A stretch of DNA of 29,165 nt, from positions 1-29,165 of the IMG/VR virus record IMGVR_UViG_2563366903_000025; one strand, given 5' to 3'. Both the position numbers and the translations under genes were made by a program. Positions within the stretch are counted from its first letter, which is position 1. Every line of letters starts with the position of its first letter. The DNA comes from a virus. Lineage: Duplodnaviria > Heunggongvirae > Uroviricota > Caudoviricetes. The notes beneath the pieces are model-generated. The model was given only the letters and a program-made list of their open reading frames with translations, did no database searches and was not told the origin of the DNA. Below are positions 820 to 7,453 of the stretch, in pieces.

Positions 820-2481
820 TTATATGAAAAAAACCGCATATTCTTTCTTTTTCGGCTCCGGATTCAGGGACATCAGGGATACCGCATTGAACAGCGCCAT
901 CAGCGGGTCAATTTTCCCCCGCCCGCTGGCCTGTTTGGTAATAAGGATAGCGTTACCTTTAGGCTCCACCCGGGCATTGCCAACGCACCAGGCCATCAGT
1001 GGCTGACCACCATGCACCAGTACTCCCTCAGCCAGTTTGCGCTCGGTGGTTTTAATGGCACCGCCCAGCTTCCAGCCCTGGCTTATCCCCACCACACTCT
1101 CATCGGGGATCCCGGCTTCCGCCAGTGAATCCAGAATCTGCCCCACGCCTGACGGGTCAATACCGATATGGTCCAGTAACTCAGCCTCATGAATGCGACG
1201 CACATACTCCGCCACTTCCGCCGTGTCATCCCCGACCCGACGGACAATGGTCATATCCCCACAGGCAACAAAATCCTGAAAACGGGCTGCCTCACTTTTT
1301 CGTCTGGCCACCGCGGTTTCATGTGCCCAGGCATGGCCCCAGCCCAGCCATTCGCGGGTCTCCCGGTCACGCCCAATCACATACATCCCCAGCAGATCAT
1401 CCAGCCCTCCGCCGTCAATCCCCACCGTCACCACATCAGCACGCTGCAGAATATCGTCCAGACTGATGCGCCTGCCCTGCTGCTCCCAGAAATCCGCCCC
1501 CGCCCAGCGGTCAGAACGCAGGGCAAGACCAATTTCCACATTGGCGTGTTTTGACATGAAACCGCGAAAAGTCTCTTCACCGGCTTCCCGGGCTTTACGG
1601 TACTCCCGGTACAGAAACGCCTCATCCACCGAATAACCGAGATTCGGATTGACCATGGCGAGGTTTTCCATCAGCAGGTGCTCACCGCTCTCCACCATCT
1701 CCGGCGGATGCTCAAAAATCACCGGCAGAAAGTGCGGATCATGAATTTTGCCGTCACGCACATCCCGGGCGTACTGCAGTTTCTGCCTGAACACCCCGGC
1801 AGGCGGCTCATTCGACTGGGTGGTCGTATACACCACAAACCCTTCCGGGCGGGAGGCAAGGCCGCCTATGGCTTCACGTAACATGTCCTCCGCCTTGTAC
1901 TGTTTGCCAAACAGCCATAACTCATCAATCAGCGTACCCACGGACTTGATACCGGACACCGTATTCGGATCGGCTGCCACCACCTTCAGGGTGGTGTCCG
2001 TCACCCGGTGGGTGATGGTCCGGATATGCGTCTGTACCTGGCAGAGGTCATCCAGATCATCGTCGCGTCGTACCATATCCCGGGCAGGGTTGAAGGCGTT
2101 GGCTGCCACCTCCACGGTCGGGGCCAGAATGGTGTAGCCCGCCGCCTGCCGCCAGTTCAGTAACAGCGCCGTCATCATGATCCCGGCGGCCAGCGTGGAC
2201 TTGCTGTTTTTTTTAGGTATCAGAATGAACACTTCCTTGATATGGCGCACACCGGTCTGCGCATCGTAGGAGCCAAACAGGGCCGCCACCAGGTCAAACA
2301 CCCACTGTGCACAGGACTCCCCGAACGTCGGGCTGCCCGGTGCATCCACAATCCGCAGTTGTTTAAAAATCGCCAGGGCATGTGCGGCCTGCTCCGGGTA
2401 AATCGGAGCCGGAATAATCGACAGCCCCTTTTTCAGGCGTACTGCCCAGTCCGGGCAGGCCGTGCTCCACCCTGGTATCAT
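820..2481 (-). CDS. Terminase large subunit
   Basis: 553 aa ORF with a Walker A-like segment (LIPKKNSKST) and a C-terminal nuclease-like region (GIDPSG). Start overlaps the upstream small-subunit stop (ATGA). Confidence 0.88.
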   Translation of the reverse strand: MIPGWSTACPDWAVRLKKGLSIIPAPIYPEQAAHALAIFKQLRIVDAPGSPTFGESCAQWVFDLVAALFGSYDAQTGVRHIKEVFILIPKKNSKSTLAAGIMMTALLLNWRQAAGYTILAPTVEVAANAFNPARDMVRRDDDLDDLCQVQTHIRTITHRVTDTTLKVVAADPNTVSGIKSVGTLIDELWLFGKQYKAEDMLREAIGGLASRPEGFVVYTTTQSNEPPAGVFRQKLQYARDVRDGKIHDPHFLPVIFEHPPEMVESGEHLLMENLAMVNPNLGYSVDEAFLYREYRKAREAGEETFRGFMSKHANVEIGLALRSDRWAGADFWEQQGRRISLDDILQRADVVTVGIDGGGLDDLLGMYVIGRDRETREWLGWGHAWAHETAVARRKSEAARFQDFVACGDMTIVRRVGDDTAEVAEYVRRIHEAELLDHIGIDPSGVGQILDSLAEAGIPDESVVGISQGWKLGGAIKTTERKLAEGVLVHGGQPLMAWCVGNARVEPKGNAILITKQASGRGKIDPLMALFNAVSLMSLNPEPKKKEYAVFFI

Positions 2482-3041
2482 CCGTTGCCCTCATTATCGT
2501 TATTCACCACCAGGCGGGGTGGTGGTGGCACCGCAAAACGGTTAGCCGCTTTTTTCGCCGCGTCACCTTTTGCCGATTTTTTACCGGCATCCCCTTTTTT
2601 ATGGTGCGTGAACTGTGCCAGTCGCCAGGCCGCATCCAGTGCCAGTTTCGGGTCAATGCTCAGGTTTTCCACCAGGATCCTCCCCATCGCTTTTACCGGA
2701 TCAGGAAGACCGTCTTCCATGTAATCAATACCTGGTAGTGGTGTGAGACTTTGCCGGTCATCAGGCGGCAGTGAAACCGGGGTGTTCTTTTCCGCCGGAG
2801 GGGCTTCCTGATGGCACTCCTCCGTCTGCGTCTTTTTCTGCCGGTAAACAGGAACCTCATCCACCTCCACCGTCTCGCCCTGCTTACGGGCAATAAACGC
2901 GAGCACCTCCGGATCTTTTGCCAGCTGCGAGCCTTTAACCCTGGCGGTCTTCGCCGAATAACCGGCGGCAATGGCTGACGCTGTTTTGTTTTTCCCGGAC
3001 ATGAGCGCCAGCGCAAATTTTCGTTTTTGCGTTGTCAGCAC
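2478..3041 (-). CDS. Terminase small subunit (GTG start at 3041; alternative ATG at 3002)
   Basis: 187 aa. N-terminal HTH-like segment KRKFALALMSGKNKTASAIAAGYSAKTA is typical of P27-type small terminase subunits. Sits immediately upstream of and coupled to the large subunit. AGGAGG precedes the GTG. Confidence 0.7.
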   Translation of the reverse strand: MLTTQKRKFALALMSGKNKTASAIAAGYSAKTARVKGSQLAKDPEVLAFIARKQGETVEVDEVPVYRQKKTQTEECHQEAPPAEKNTPVSLPPDDRQSLTPLPGIDYMEDGLPDPVKAMGRILVENLSIDPKLALDAAWRLAQFTHHKKGDAGKKSAKGDAAKKAANRFAVPPPPRLVVNNDNEGNG

Positions 3042-3330: not shown

Positions 3331-3696
3331 TCACAGTCCGATGATATCGTCTGCCCTGCCACGACCTCCGGACACCTCCGGCAGCGTCGGGTCCGGCATA
3401 CCACCCGCCGCTTCACGAGCAGACTTTTGTCGATGGCATTCGGTACAGAGCGTCCAGAGATTCGTCTCCTCATTACCACCACCGAACTGAAGTGCAATTC
3501 GGTGATCAAGTTCACTGTCACAGAGGTCAACCACACGACCACAGATACAGCACTGCCCGGCGTCCCTGAGCCAGATATGACGCTTGAGGGAAACACGTGC
3601 ACTGCCACTGACACGACGCTGTTCCCCCTTCAGAATATTCACCCGTCGGGTATTCAGTGTTTTGATTCTGCTCTGGAGTGTACGAAGCTCAGCCAT
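3331..3696 (-). CDS. HNH endonuclease (packaging-associated)
   Basis: 121 aa with CxxC...H-N-H motif (CCICGRVVDLCDSELDHRIALQFGGGNEETNLWTLCTECHRQK), directly upstream of the terminase genes as is common in HK97/P27-like packaging modules. Confidence 0.85.
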   Translation of the reverse strand: MAELRTLQSRIKTLNTRRVNILKGEQRRVSGSARVSLKRHIWLRDAGQCCICGRVVDLCDSELDHRIALQFGGGNEETNLWTLCTECHRQKSAREAAGGMPDPTLPEVSGGRGRADDIIGL

Positions 3697-4128: not shown

Positions 4129-4677
4129 TCAGGCTGAAATGCCTTTATCAAATCCGGGTAACGCAATCTGCCCCTGCTGCTCCAGCCTGTCCAGCCTTGC
4201 CAGCAACTGAGGCTTCTTCACCCTGCCCCAGCGATTGAGCAAACGACCTGACATACTGGCAACATCTTTCTCTTTCATGTACTCCAGCATTACAGCGTTG
4301 CGTTCAGCTTCATAACTTTCACTGAACTTACGGAGTTCAGCGGACATCCAGTTAAAGGCATTAATATAGGCTTCTTTAACAGCATCAGCTTTTGCCCCGT
4401 TAAATCCCATAACCAGCATAACGAAGCCGCTAAAGTCCATGCGGTAGTAAATCTGCTTCTTGTCGAAAATCCCTAACTCATTGATTTTTTCGGCAACGCA
4501 AAAATGCGCTCTCCGGAAATCTTCAGAGCAATGGCAATTTTTCAGCGCCCTCAATACGTCCGCATGACGCTTACCAAACGCCTTAGCGATCTGAAAAGAG
4601 TCTGTTATTGGTTCGCCATCTGCCGCTGTTACCAGTTGGCGAAAATCAATACCGTCAACAATCGTCGGATAGTTCAT
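4129..4677 (-). CDS. rha: Rha-family phage regulatory protein
   Basis: 182 aa. N-terminus contains the Rha hallmark (QIAKAFGKRHADVLRAL). Confidence 0.75.
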   Translation of the reverse strand: MNYPTIVDGIDFRQLVTAADGEPITDSFQIAKAFGKRHADVLRALKNCHCSEDFRRAHFCVAEKINELGIFDKKQIYYRMDFSGFVMLVMGFNGAKADAVKEAYINAFNWMSAELRKFSESYEAERNAVMLEYMKEKDVASMSGRLLNRWGRVKKPQLLARLDRLEQQGQIALPGFDKGISA

Positions 4678-4686
4678 CGCGTTTTA

Positions 4687-4778
4687 CCTTTCAGAAAATT
4701 GAGCCTGTCTCACAGAAAAGCCGCCCCGAGATGGTCGCCACCATATACGGCAGTTCTCAGGCTCAACTTTCTGAAAGG
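4687..4778. promoter_or_regulatory. 21-bp inverted repeat (20 of 21 complementary) flanking about 50 bp, immediately upstream of the rha start
   Basis: cctttcagaaaattgagcctg (4687-4707) and caggctcaactttctgaaagg (4758-4778) are near-perfect reverse complements. The left arm overlaps the rha RBS region. A nested CCCCGAG/CTCGGGG repeat lies at 4724-4730 and 4779-4785. Confidence 0.5.
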
Positions 4779-4825
4779 CTCGGGGATGTGATATGCGCGT
4801 GAGATGCGCGGTGAAATTCAGATAT

Positions 4826-4850
4826 GAAAAAGCCAGCGATTAAGCTGGCT
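4826..4850 (-). terminator. Intrinsic terminator-like hairpin just downstream of Rz
   Basis: Minus-strand RNA: AGCCAGC-uuaauc-GCUGGCU followed by UUUUUC (plus-strand A-run at 4826-4830). Confidence 0.45.
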
Positions 4851-4853
4851 CTG

Positions 4854-5321
4854 TTAATTCAGGCACTGAGTGCGGATATAGTCCTGTGCCCCTTCCAGCT
4901 GCTTCTGCATCAGCATCAACCGCTCTCTGAGGGTGAAATAATCCCGTTCAGCGGTGTCTGCCAGTCGGGGGCCGGTTGCATTATCCACGCCGGAGGTGCC
5001 GGTGGCTTCACGCACGGTACCGGAGCAGGTGGCGTTGATCCGCAGGCGCTTACGACCAGCGGCAACATCAGCACGCAGAGTTTCATTTTCAGCTCTCGCA
5101 TCAGCTAATTCCCTCGAGTATTTTGCATCGAGCGCAGCAACATCACGCTGGCGCACCTGCATGTCAGTAATGGTTGCGTTTGCCAGCTCCAGCTCTCTGG
5201 CTTTTTTATCGCGCTGCGCTTTGTAGGTGATGGCGTTATCGCGGTAATGGTTTGCTGCCAGCCACAGCGCACCGCAGCCAACCGCCAGGACAATAATCAC
5301 CACACACAGAACACGGTTCAT
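4854..5321 (-). CDS. Rz: Rz i-spanin
   Basis: 155 aa with N-terminal TM segment and coiled-coil body ([20 protein letters not shown]...[15 protein letters not shown]), closely resembling phage 21/lambda Rz as I recall it. Start overlaps the methyltransferase stop (ATGA). Confidence 0.88.
4916..5086 (-). CDS. Rz1: Rz1 o-spanin lipoprotein (embedded in Rz in the +1 frame)
   Basis: From ATG 5086: [17 protein letters not shown]..., a signal peptide with lipobox (VSAC) followed by a proline-rich body. Embedded position within Rz is diagnostic. Confidence 0.8.
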
Positions 5322-6262
5322 ATCACTACCATTTCACTGTTTTCTTTTTTCAGGCGTTTTTTTGCAACAGCGAAATACCGGTCATCCTTTTCTATTCCGG
5401 TAAACCATCTCCCCGTCCGGATACACGCAACACCTGTTGAACCACTCCCCATAGTAAAATCCAGGACCATATCGCCGGGGTTACTGTACGTCTGAATCAG
5501 CTCTTCCAGTAAGGGCACCGGCTTCTGAGTGGGGTGAAAACGCACTTTTTCCCGTGAGTACTCCAGCACATTTGAACGGTATTTTCTCCCGGCGGGGAGA
5601 TTAAACACCTTTTGACCGTAGGCATGATTAAGCTGACACATCGCTTCATATGTCATGAACCCCGGCATCCGGTCGATGCCAAAGCGTTCGATTAATTCGT
5701 TGTACGTTGCCCGTGAGCAGAGGGAAAACTGCGTGGTGTTAACCCTGAAAAAGTGCTCAGCCCGACAGTGTCCAAGCACCTTGTTAACCTCCTTGCCTGA
5801 CCGGTAACCGGTGAAGGAAAGAATGCTTCTGACGTATTCCCTCAGCGGGTGCTTTTTCTCACTATCATATTTTTTGCTGAACACAACAATGTCCTCGAAC
5901 AGCGATACCGGCGCCTTTGGGGCTACCAGCGGATTGGCAAAATGATTTTTTTTCCACACCATGCGATACGAAAACGGCAGATTGTTCAGCGCCTGAGTAA
6001 TCATCGTGCTGGTGTACGGCTCCTGACCGAACAGAATCAGTGTCCCGTTTACCCTCAGCAGACGCTCACACTGTAAGAATATCTCCACCGGGGGTAATGC
6101 TTCATCCCATGATGCTTTCCCTGAATCCCATGAAGGCAGGTTTAGCCCCTTAATGGTTCCATAGGGTGGATCAACGAGGATAAGGTCAATGCTTCCTTCC
6201 GGTAACGTTGGCATAATCTCCAGACAGTCACCATGATACAGAGAACTGTTCATCTCTTTCAC
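5318..6262 (-). CDS. DNA methyltransferase (beta-class N6-adenine or N4-cytosine; orphan, no restriction partner seen)
   Basis: 314 aa. N-terminal DPPY motif (LILVDPPYG) and C-terminal AdoMet-binding motif ([15 protein letters not shown] with upstream HPTQKP). Motif order IV...I suggests the beta class. No adjacent endonuclease-like ORF. Confidence 0.8.
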
Positions 6263-6395: not shown

Positions 6396-6488
6396 CCCCT
6401 TGATAGCAGTAATTAACTGGGCAACCACCCATAAAAACGGAATCAGCCAGACCAGCAAAAATTTCCAGTCCATTTTTATCATCTTCAT
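6396..6488 (-). CDS. Small hydrophobic peptide (30 aa)
   Basis: My translation from ATG 6488, which overlaps the antirepressor stop (ATGA): MKMIKMDWKFLLVWLIPFLWVVAQLITAIKG. Below the ORF-track length cutoff. Confidence 0.3.
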
Positions 6489-7180
6489 GCTGCGGTAGCT
6501 CTCCATGCAGCAAGCAGACCAGCAATCCACTCAACACCTTTTGGGGTGAATTTAACCTGCGTAAAAGCATGACCATTGCCCGCCTCGCCCGTTTTCACGC
6601 TAAACCGCCCCGCATCCAGGTGATGCGAGTAAGGCGTCATTTTTCCAGCGAGGCGATACATTATTCCGTTCTCCAACAAAAACAGCCGGAAATCGGTTTC
6701 TTTGATACCGAGTAACTTAGCAACTTCCCGGAATCCCATCAGACCAGATGCTTCAACATAGTTATCAACAAATTCGGCCTTCGGCGCTGCTATTGCCAGT
6801 TGATTTTCCAGCACTGCTTTCTGTTCAGCCAGTTTTGCCGCAAATCGCAACGCCTCAGGTAAAGTCCGGGGGATCTGAATACCATGCATCGCTTTGAGTC
6901 TTGCCAGCACAGAACGACGAACGGCCTTTGACTCCCTCATGCCAACGAGCATCATCTGGTCAAAATCCAGATCATAGTATGCCGTTCTTGTCTGGTTATT
7001 GTTTAACCGGAATTTTTTTCCGGTTCCATCAAGCTCTAGCTCATCCTCAATTTTTGCAAGAAACTTACGCGGTTCATGAGGGACTTCTCCGGCTTCTGCC
7101 CGGGCTGGATTAATAATGTTATTCAGAAAATCCAGACTACTCATGGATATTTCATGATCGACAGAAATCATCTCTTTCAT
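6485..7180 (-). CDS. Antirepressor-like protein with KilA-C-type C-terminal domain
   Basis: 231 aa. C-terminal segment LPEALRFAAKLAEQKAVLENQLAIAAPKAEFVDNYVEASG... is paralogous to the C-terminus of the 13088..13816 gene ([40 protein letters not shown]). Confidence 0.65.
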   Translation of the reverse strand: MKEMISVDHEISMSSLDFLNNIINPARAEAGEVPHEPRKFLAKIEDELELDGTGKKFRLNNNQTRTAYYDLDFDQMMLVGMRESKAVRRSVLARLKAMHGIQIPRTLPEALRFAAKLAEQKAVLENQLAIAAPKAEFVDNYVEASGLMGFREVAKLLGIKETDFRLFLLENGIMYRLAGKMTPYSHHLDAGRFSVKTGEAGNGHAFTQVKFTPKGVEWIAGLLAAWRATAA

Positions 7181-7453
7181 GGTTGATTCCTTTTAGTGAT
7201 GAACCCTGCGCACAGGAATAACCAGCCCAAAGAGGGTTAACCAGACCACTGCCGGTTATCCACCAGGGCTCATCCTGAAAGGTTCTTTGGTTTATTTACG
7301 CTTGTGCGAAGCGCAGAAATGACAAAGGCACCATTACGGTGCCTCTGCGTGAAATAATGTTCCTGACTTTATTCACTTACATTTTGCCAGCTCGCAGGAT
7401 TTCGTGTTATCCGCCCGCGTTGGCCAACGTCATTTTTCAGCAAAATATTCTGC

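Follow-up and report, generated by a model that had tools for sequence, protein, structure and literature searches.

What does a long inverted repeat do when it lies immediately upstream of rha, a gene whose products, like Ant-type proteins, interfere with phage repressors and phage growth? We addressed this question in the window, a 29,165-nucleotide stretch of DNA from a Caudoviricetes virus (IMG/VR record IMGVR_UViG_2563366903_000025). A sequence-only reading had proposed that the repeat sequesters the rha ribosome-binding site and had likened it to sib-type retroregulation. That reading is partly supported: it was right about sequestration, the sib analogy found no support, and its scope was too narrow. 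Judged by comparison of sequences, the long repeat contributes one helix to a leader with five helices and two pseudoknots, which serves many genes besides rha.

The rha ribosome-binding site is predicted to lie in a long stem

A repeat search recovered the 21-nt repeat exactly as first described, with 20 of 21 positions (95%) complementary and 50 nt between the arms (B and B′, Table 1). The accompanying 7-nt pair, CCCCGAG/CTCGGGG (A and A′), is present and perfect, but it is interleaved with the long repeat and not nested within it as had been stated. One 7-nt arm lies inside the loop of the long hairpin and the other outside, directly 5′ of the gene-distal arm, so the two pairings cross.

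As minus-strand RNA, the segment 4860..4660 has a predicted fold of −76.1 kcal/mol, compared with −50.7 ± 4.3 kcal/mol for dinucleotide shuffles (z = −5.95; none of 200 shuffles equalled it). In this fold the distal arm pairs, as had been suggested, with the region just 5′ of the rha start codon. The foot of the 21-bp stem is made by the Shine-Dalgarno (SD) sequence AAAGG, 9 nt ahead of the ATG; the SD has a predicted probability of being unpaired of 0.001, and freeing the stretch from SD to AUG would cost 17.1 kcal/mol. The same arrangement, an SD held in a stable helix directly upstream of the start codon, recurs in ten representative leaders. Predicted opening costs over the representatives run from 3.4 to 18 kcal/mol (6.9 for a second copy in the window, 8.7 for phi80 and 3.4–5.7 for several others), with the SD buried in all of them.

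A buried ribosome-binding site would imply that the downstream gene is translated weakly. Sequence comparison demonstrates that the leader is conserved, has two pseudoknots and carries the SD in its main stem; translational repression is what we infer from predicted thermodynamics and the position of the SD. The best explanation, and in our judgement a probable one, is that a cis-acting leader RNA of ~130 nt locks the ribosome-binding site and keeps translation of the downstream gene low on late transcripts.

Anatomy of the leader RNA

Side-by-side reading of divergent copies yielded the anatomy in Table 1, in which D:D′ and A:A′ both cross stems B and C.

Table 1. Features of the rha leader and related elements, in window positions
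Feature	Position	Strand	Sequence or content	Basis and remarks
Terminator-like hairpin	4827..4850	−	AGCCAGC-UUAAUC-GCUGGCU and U run	Just 3′ of Rz/Rz1, just 5′ of leader; repeat search and fold
Leader RNA	about 4809 to 4678	−	~130 nt	
P0 hairpin	4795..4809	−	GCGC-AUCUCAC-GCGC	Fold; stem covaries (CG to UA)
D	4804..4799	−	UCUCAC, in P0 loop	Complementary to bulge D′
Linker	4786..4794	−	AUAUCACAU; 9 nt, A/U/C-rich, single-stranded	Fold and family comparison
A	4779..4785	−	CCCCGAG, crossing partner of A′	Repeat search; at least 12 different complementary A/A′ pairs in relatives
B	4758..4778	−	5′ arm of 21-bp stem, anti-SD strand	Repeat search, fold, covariation
C	4748..4757	−	AGAACUGCCG, 5′ arm of upper 10-bp stem	Fold; covaries
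E	4731..4744	−	AUGGU-GGCG-ACCAU, optional mini-hairpin in apical loop	Fold; covaries
A′	4724..4730	−	CUCGGGG, in apical loop, partner of A	Repeat search, partner permutation
C′	4714..4723	−	CGGCUUUUCU, 3′ arm of upper stem	Fold, covariation
D′	4708..4713	−	GUGAGA, 6-nt bulge between C′ and B′	Pairs with P0 loop; at least 12 different complementary loop/bulge pairs
B′	4687..4707	−	3′ arm of 21-bp stem	Terminal AAAGG (4691..4687) is the rha SD
rha	4129..4677	−	182 aa; Phage_pRha and ORF11CD3 (Pfam)	ATG 4677..4675, 9 nt past B′
Rz	4854..5321	−		Same strand as rha, upstream; Rz1 also there
Antirepressor-type gene	6485..7180	−	231 aa; Pfam ANT/KilAC	Directly 3′ of second leader copy
Second leader copy	7324..7173	−	Divergent copy	Covariance-model search, 53.7 bits, E 6e-12

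The direct repeat that the repeat search reported at P0 is the P0 palindrome itself, and the linker between P0 and A averages about 6–7 nt across the family. Stem C becomes AGGAACGCCG/CGGCGUUCCU in Klebsiella-type copies. Hairpin E reads AGCU-GGCA-AGCU in a Providencia phage and is missing from a subfamily that includes mEp237, mEp213, mEp390, AsXd-1 and EKP1; because this subfamily is without hairpin E, the GGUGGCGACC block is not universal.

Helix sizes vary little, with 19–21 bp in B, 9–10 bp in C and 5–7 bp in A, and the length of B minus that of C and A together is 4.0 ± 1.0 with hairpin E and 3.7 ± 1.2 without it. Geometrically, these conserved sizes would fit an arrangement in which B lies beside C stacked on A:A′. 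In P0, six of the seven loop bases pair with the bulge, as in a classical H-type pseudoknot. Since each crossing helix is shorter than one helical turn, it could form on the finished hairpin without threading, and by this geometric argument all five helices might coexist.

Coupling to an upstream reading frame was considered and rejected. A 17-codon frame (4692–4744, minus strand) runs from an AUG at 4744 to a UGA inside B′; its start lacks an SD and sits in hairpin E, and the frame is missing from the Providencia copy and from the subfamily without hairpin E, so it is probably not a real upstream open reading frame (uORF).

Covariation supports every helix, including the two crossing pairings

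Conservation of the repeat in relatives, on which the earlier proposal depended, was evident: the helix is kept there with compensatory changes. In a set of 70 sequences with all six helices specified, 85.7% of cells formed standard pairs, compared with 80.5% in shuffled data and 37–45% when the 3′ partner was slid. Twenty-three pairs were altered on both sides, compared with 11.7 in the shuffles, and none of 500 shuffles attained the observed values. Within stem B, 8 of the 21 pairs had changed on both sides and 88.6% of cells were paired; the P0, C and E stems likewise covary.

The register of the A:A′ and D:D′ pairings differs from one subfamily to another, which makes column-based counts too low for them, and for this reason the best helix was searched for in each sequence separately. 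This was done in a first set and in an independent set picked by stem-B sequence only and confirmed by covariance model. The independent set held 30 loop/bulge and 56 A/A′ haplotypes complementary within their own sequence. Mean helix length was 5.63 for loop/bulge and 6.00 for A/A′, compared with 4.46 and 5.12 when partners were permuted among haplotypes, and for each crossing pairing none of 5000 permutations attained the observed value.

The variants themselves are diverse. P0 loop and bulge occur as UCUCAC/GUGAGA, UCGCAC/GUGCGA, UCGUAC/GUACGA, UCACAC/GUGUGA, UUCACC/GGUGAA, UCACCC/GGGUGA, UUCUCC/GGAGAA, CGCUCG/UGAGCG and, in the Providencia phage copy, UAGCAC/GUGCUA. The P0 loop and the distal bulge thus stay complementary through changes on both sides, as is characteristic of an H-type pseudoknot. 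For A and A′ the pairs include CCCGAG/CUCGGG, CGAGAG/CUCUCG, AGAGAG/CUCUCU, CCAAGAG/CUCUUGG, GAAAGU/ACUUUC, CGAUA/UAUCG, CGAGACA/UGUCUCG and CCACAGAG/CUCUGUGG, among others. On this comparative evidence, all helices, both crossing ones included, covary over more than 200 instances in phages and prophages from numerous genera of Enterobacterales.

Counts of G·U against A·C were uninformative as to the transcribed strand (113 versus 116 in the nested helices, with similar values in the crossing helices). Gene orientation, the position of the SD and AUG, and the upstream terminator point to the minus strand.

Predicted energetics of the window leader and its relatives

For the window leader, the hairpin fold is predicted at −61.3 kcal/mol and the nested alternative built from the two crossing helices at −32.1 kcal/mol. 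Because the hairpin fold far outweighs the crossing-helix alternative, the crossing duplexes (predicted at −12.7 kcal/mol for A:A′ and −6.6 kcal/mol for D:D′) would add to the hairpin and not compete with it at equilibrium. An equilibrium two-state switch between A:A′ with D:D′ and B with C was rejected, the alternative being ~29 kcal/mol less stable. More plausibly, the crossing helices dock onto the finished hairpin.

With the final fold better by ~29 kcal/mol, only a kinetic route could expose the SD in the window allele. Such a kinetic trap would act as a folding timer, in which the SD is briefly free on each new transcript and then locked, giving one small protein burst per mRNA. A:A′ would form before C′ and B′ exist; with B then in a closed loop, B′ could not wind two turns until A:A′ opens. 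A transcript ending at A′ does have a predicted lowest-energy fold that contains A:A′ (−25.8 kcal/mol), A:A′ is a stable, G+C-rich 7-bp duplex, and a timer would explain why tertiary pairings are conserved on top of an already stable stem. However, the predicted fold loses A:A′ once C′ is added, P0 and the loop–bulge pairing would be superfluous, and the scheme is purely conjectural; we consider it unlikely, though worth entertaining beside the favoured lock.

Stem B is less perfect in most relatives, which carry a conserved C·A mismatch and one or two more (columns 70/155, 73/152 and 77/148). The conserved C·A lies six pairs above the base of stem B, adjoining the SD duplex; at columns 70/155 nearly all relatives have C·A, and C–G occurs in 2 of 69 sequences, the window and one other. 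By these predictions the window rha copy is an unusually tight allele, with C–G replacing the C·A of the family and a predicted lock of 17 against 3–9 kcal/mol. Read on the opposite strand, the conserved mismatch is a G·U pair.

The same mismatches bear on RNase III processing, the other role named in the sequence-only reading. If the leader were a processing site, the duplex would be cut, the lysis-gene and rha messages separated, and the rha mRNA activated or destroyed. The window allele, with 21 and 10 bp of duplex and an asymmetric 6-nt bulge, would suit this role, and processing signals of T7 and the lambda N leader resemble such a duplex. In terms of nearly uninterrupted double-stranded RNA of about two turns, however, the window allele offers 20/21 plus 10 bp and most relatives have stem B interrupted by the conserved C·A and one or two further mismatches; the two or three mismatches would make them poorer RNase III substrates than the window allele. 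In addition, the P0 loop already fills the bulge, cleavage there would leave B and B′ still paired, and the layout of sib, 3′ of the controlled gene, is inapplicable. We rate RNase III processing as distinctly unlikely to be the purpose of the element.

The predicted energies also weigh on the favoured reading, that of a translational lock. In several relatives an SD opening cost of 3–6 kcal/mol would make for a mild lock, and it is not obvious why simple damping should require elaborate tertiary pairings. A perfect 21-bp lock in the window would conversely make the route to any rha translation problematic. RNase III cleavage, a folding delay, or a host or phage factor are possible routes of release.

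The leader sits between a terminator and a start codon

A terminator-like hairpin with a T-run occurs within 80 nt upstream of the element in 158 of 186 distinct contexts, compared with 60 of 2000 (3%) random windows. No sigma-70-like promoter was found on either strand of window positions 4400–5400, and in some relatives the terminator abuts P0, leaving no room there for a promoter of the element's own. These two observations make the leader most simply a part of the Q-antiterminated late transcript. On the same grounds, no sigma-70-like site and no space between terminator and P0 in some relatives, we rejected a stand-alone small RNA with its own promoter. Identity with a known Stx-phage small RNA was likewise rejected, as the loci lie elsewhere: 24B_1 is encoded near lom, with the d_ant coding region as proposed target (PMC4426718), and AgvB and AsxR lie 3′ of PR′ and stx (PMC4104026).

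At the other end of the element, an SD-like motif and a start codon in the same orientation follow its 3′ end in 228 of 237 matches. Constant orientation, the SD and start codon that follow, and the terminator usually found upstream led us to reject MITEs or transposon ends. Another possibility is that function resides in the opposite strand, as an antisense RNA of the P22 sar kind, or in the DNA, as a recombination linker between modules, a cruciform or a protein site. The wobble statistics fail to distinguish the strands, and conservation stops exactly at gene boundaries, as at mosaic junctions. Yet neither strand shows a promoter-like site in 4400–5400, orientation and spacing to the start codon and SD are constant, and the element is never found at unrelated sites, unlike a mobile repeat. 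At least 12 compensatory variants in each of two 5–7-bp crossing pairings would also be unexpected in a DNA linker, and we hold this possibility to be highly improbable.

The genes downstream are varied. The 152 unique downstream proteins form 21 clusters, of which the Rha cluster is the largest; the others comprise ANT, Bro-N, T5orf172/MUG113, HNH_3+AP2, a glycosyltransferase, an uncharacterised family and unknowns. By phage, the downstream gene encodes Rha in phi80, KilA-N in SPN3UB and HK620, and hypothetical proteins in HK106 and mEp237. In mEp390 (L136, 1202–1329), L204 and others the leader precedes a large family-2 glycosyltransferase, so the cassette is not confined to antirepressor-like genes.

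In phi80 (L124, 1596–1632; JX871397, 43739) the GenBank rha coding sequence opens with a GTG that coincides with the beginning of the bulge GUGAGA. The RefSeq prophage annotation uses the conserved ATG with an SD before it, 36 nt further downstream. The GenBank start is probably a mis-call. Elsewhere in the window, by eye, an HNH-endonuclease-like frame (3331–3696, minus strand) lies upstream of a small-terminase-like frame (2478–3041, minus strand), an order typical of HK97-like cos packaging modules.

The variety of downstream genes also speaks to whether the leader responds to a signal. In such a switch, the doubly pseudoknotted fold would bind a small molecule or a host or phage protein, and the SD duplex would open. 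Conservation of the tertiary architecture and helix dimensions is consistent with this, as is the marginal SD duplex of many relatives (3–9 kcal/mol), which is what would be expected of a regulated platform. The element also precedes phi80 rha, and the Rha phenotype linked to IHF in phi80 and P22 may point to host input: PMC4936722, citing Henthorn & Friedman (1995), and an annotation note report the phi80 rha product as harmful to phage growth in IHF-defective hosts. However, nearly all conserved columns lie in helices, whereas a riboswitch would have invariant unpaired bases forming a ligand pocket; the apical loop varies and some copies do without hairpin E. A single metabolic or transport pathway, as expected downstream of a riboswitch, was not found among the 152 proteins in 21 clusters, and no known riboswitch model matches. 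We give a signal-responsive switch little credence.

Second copies within one genome

The second, divergent leader copy of the window retains every helix, with crossing pairings that differ from those of the rha copy: CGCAC in the P0 loop with GUGCG in the bulge, and CCAAAGA with UCUUUGG. Upstream of it lie a hairpin (GGCACC-GUAA-UGGUGCC) with a U-rich tract and an endolysin gene. The ANT-domain gene that follows this copy is located downstream of the endolysin gene, like the gene named d_ant in papers on Stx phages. Between this antirepressor gene and Rz is a 314-aa open reading frame (5318–6262, minus strand) with, by eye, a DPPY-type DNA methyltransferase signature.

Besides the window, two copies are present in L001, L004, L061, L108, L169, L184, L187, L203 and L216, and phi80-like loci hold two copies as well, with crossing pairings of different sequence. 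The A/A′ sequences differ between the two copies of a genome, and in most genomes so do the loop and bulge, which are similar in L004. Sequence divergence of this kind may reflect avoidance of cross-pairing on one polycistronic transcript.

The leader is widespread in enterobacterial phages and prophages

Matches to the leader region occur in 246 phage records, among them Stx2a and Stx1a phages, phi80, HK106, HK639, Sf101, SPN3UB, and Klebsiella and Enterobacter phages. Among complete E. coli genomes, 916 of 5426, about one in six, carry the element. Further searches found it in phages recorded on Hafnia, Providencia, Edwardsiella and Aeromonas. Scanning one genome per species for the pattern added copies in Yersinia, Pantoea, Rahnella, Rouxiella, Buttiauxella, Kosakonia, Kluyvera, Tatumella, Mangrovibacter, Symbiopectobacterium and others, and one in a Cobetia genome. 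In many relatives similarity is confined to an intergenic stretch of ~165 bp that ends at the start codon.

Some records call for care. The leaders in metagenome-assembled genomes labelled Cellvibrionaceae, Bacillota and Collinsella (L163, L208 and L219) match E. coli phage copies exactly or almost exactly, which looks like binning contamination and not a sign of true hosts, and the record named 'Elizabethkingia phage EKP1' is enterobacterial in appearance. In L048 (3777–3921; 60.8 bits) unrelated DNA follows the bulge in place of B′ and the SD; this natural truncation might leave the region downstream unlocked or dead.

Against Rfam 15, the window rha copy gave chance-level matches only (E ≥ 1.2, far under the gathering scores), and four divergent copies gave no match at E ≤ 0.1. 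No account of the element turned up in the searchable literature, although an older mention of similarity 5′ of rha may exist. The leader RNA seems to be an undescribed element, widespread in lambda-like phages.

Discussion

In the lock model that we favour, the leader would be transcribed within the Q-antiterminated late operon. Sequence comparison shows it folding into P0, a 19–21-bp stem B with the SD/anti-SD duplex at its base, a 9–10-bp stem C and the optional E, with two crossing pairings: one joins the P0 loop to the 6-nt bulge that separates C from B, the other joins the apical loop to the 5–7 nt that directly precede B. These two short pairings would dock on the finished hairpin and clamp a compact fold, with B beside C stacked on A:A′. 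The SD would stay buried, so that a very abundant late transcript is translated only weakly. Terminator and leader together would form a portable 'keep it low' cassette for late operons, placed before accessory, often DNA-binding genes (Rha, ANT, Bro-N, T5orf172, HNH and others).

A more far-reaching proposal is a new class of switchable, doubly pseudoknotted RNA, either timer or signal sensor, that gates Rha, ANT and Bro-N/KilA-N genes in lambdoid late operons, including those of Shiga-toxin phages, and that is the missing post-transcriptional link behind the IHF-dependent Rha phenotype of phi80 and P22. We regard this proposal as doubtful.

A conserved RNA lock before Rha- and Ant-type genes would amount to a layer of late-operon control that genome annotations ignore, in about one-sixth of complete E. 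coli genomes and in Stx2a phages. The leader accounts for a ~165-bp stretch conserved whatever genes adjoin it, and it corrects start-codon calls such as the one placed inside the bulge of phi80. Its five-helix, double-pseudoknot fold, with rich natural covariation, is suited to structure determination and folding studies, and the terminator–leader cassette could serve as a ready, orthogonalisable part for damping translation.

Comparison with known systems

The nearest functional analogues are the MS2 maturation-protein leader, the lambda RNase III hairpins and c4, sar and IsrK, none of which has the same fold or layout. In the MS2 leader, a long-distance pairing buries the SD, and kinetic control by delayed RNA folding has been demonstrated. 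Like the rha-type leader, it is a phage leader that buries an SD before a gene whose protein is needed in small amounts, with expression as an escape before or despite folding. Unlike it, the MS2 leader belongs to an RNA phage and is a cloverleaf of unrelated sequence with no double pseudoknot, and kinetics are demonstrated there and conjectural here.

The sib retroregulator of int lies 3′ of its gene, is formed by read-through and acts via decay. With sib and the N-leader hairpins of lambda, the rha-type element shares long duplexes in antiterminated lambdoid transcripts and post-transcriptional control of a regulatory gene. With the rha hairpin placed 5′ of its gene and including the SD, the analogy to sib drawn by the sequence-only reading fails on layout. 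The element also differs from the lambda hairpins in being mismatched in most relatives and in having two conserved pseudoknot pairings.

The preQ1-II, preQ1-III and SAM-II riboswitches are SD-sequestering pseudoknots (reviewed in PMC11625349). They resemble the present element as pseudoknotted leaders with the SD in a helix, but they are small, have invariant ligand-pocket bases and precede genes of one pathway. In the leader described here, by contrast, the SD stem spans 19–21 bp, few unpaired bases are conserved and the downstream genes are unrelated to one another.

RNA control of antirepressor-type genes provides the remaining comparison. Rfam 15 presumably includes the C4 antisense RNA and isrK families, beside known ribozymes and riboswitches; the comparison with c4 and sar gave no Rfam match at E ≤ 10 for the rha copy or at E ≤ 0.1 for four divergent copies. 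The c4 antisense RNA of P1 and P7 controls icd-ant, and sar of P22 controls ant (summarised in PMC12197685). As here, loop sequences pair near a ribosome-binding site, and the partner sequences vary between related phages yet remain complementary. c4 and sar, however, are separate, trans-acting small RNAs that confer immunity, whereas both partners here lie within one ~130-nt leader, in a late operon that the lysogen does not express. At the IsrK/orf45-anrP locus of the Salmonella prophage Gifsy-1, activation occurs by the short IsrK RNA from the same locus and by coupling through orf45 (PMC12197685). The rha-type leader has no conserved uORF and no Rfam match, but the two systems are alike in placing a prophage antirepressor gene behind a translationally inactive, structured leader.
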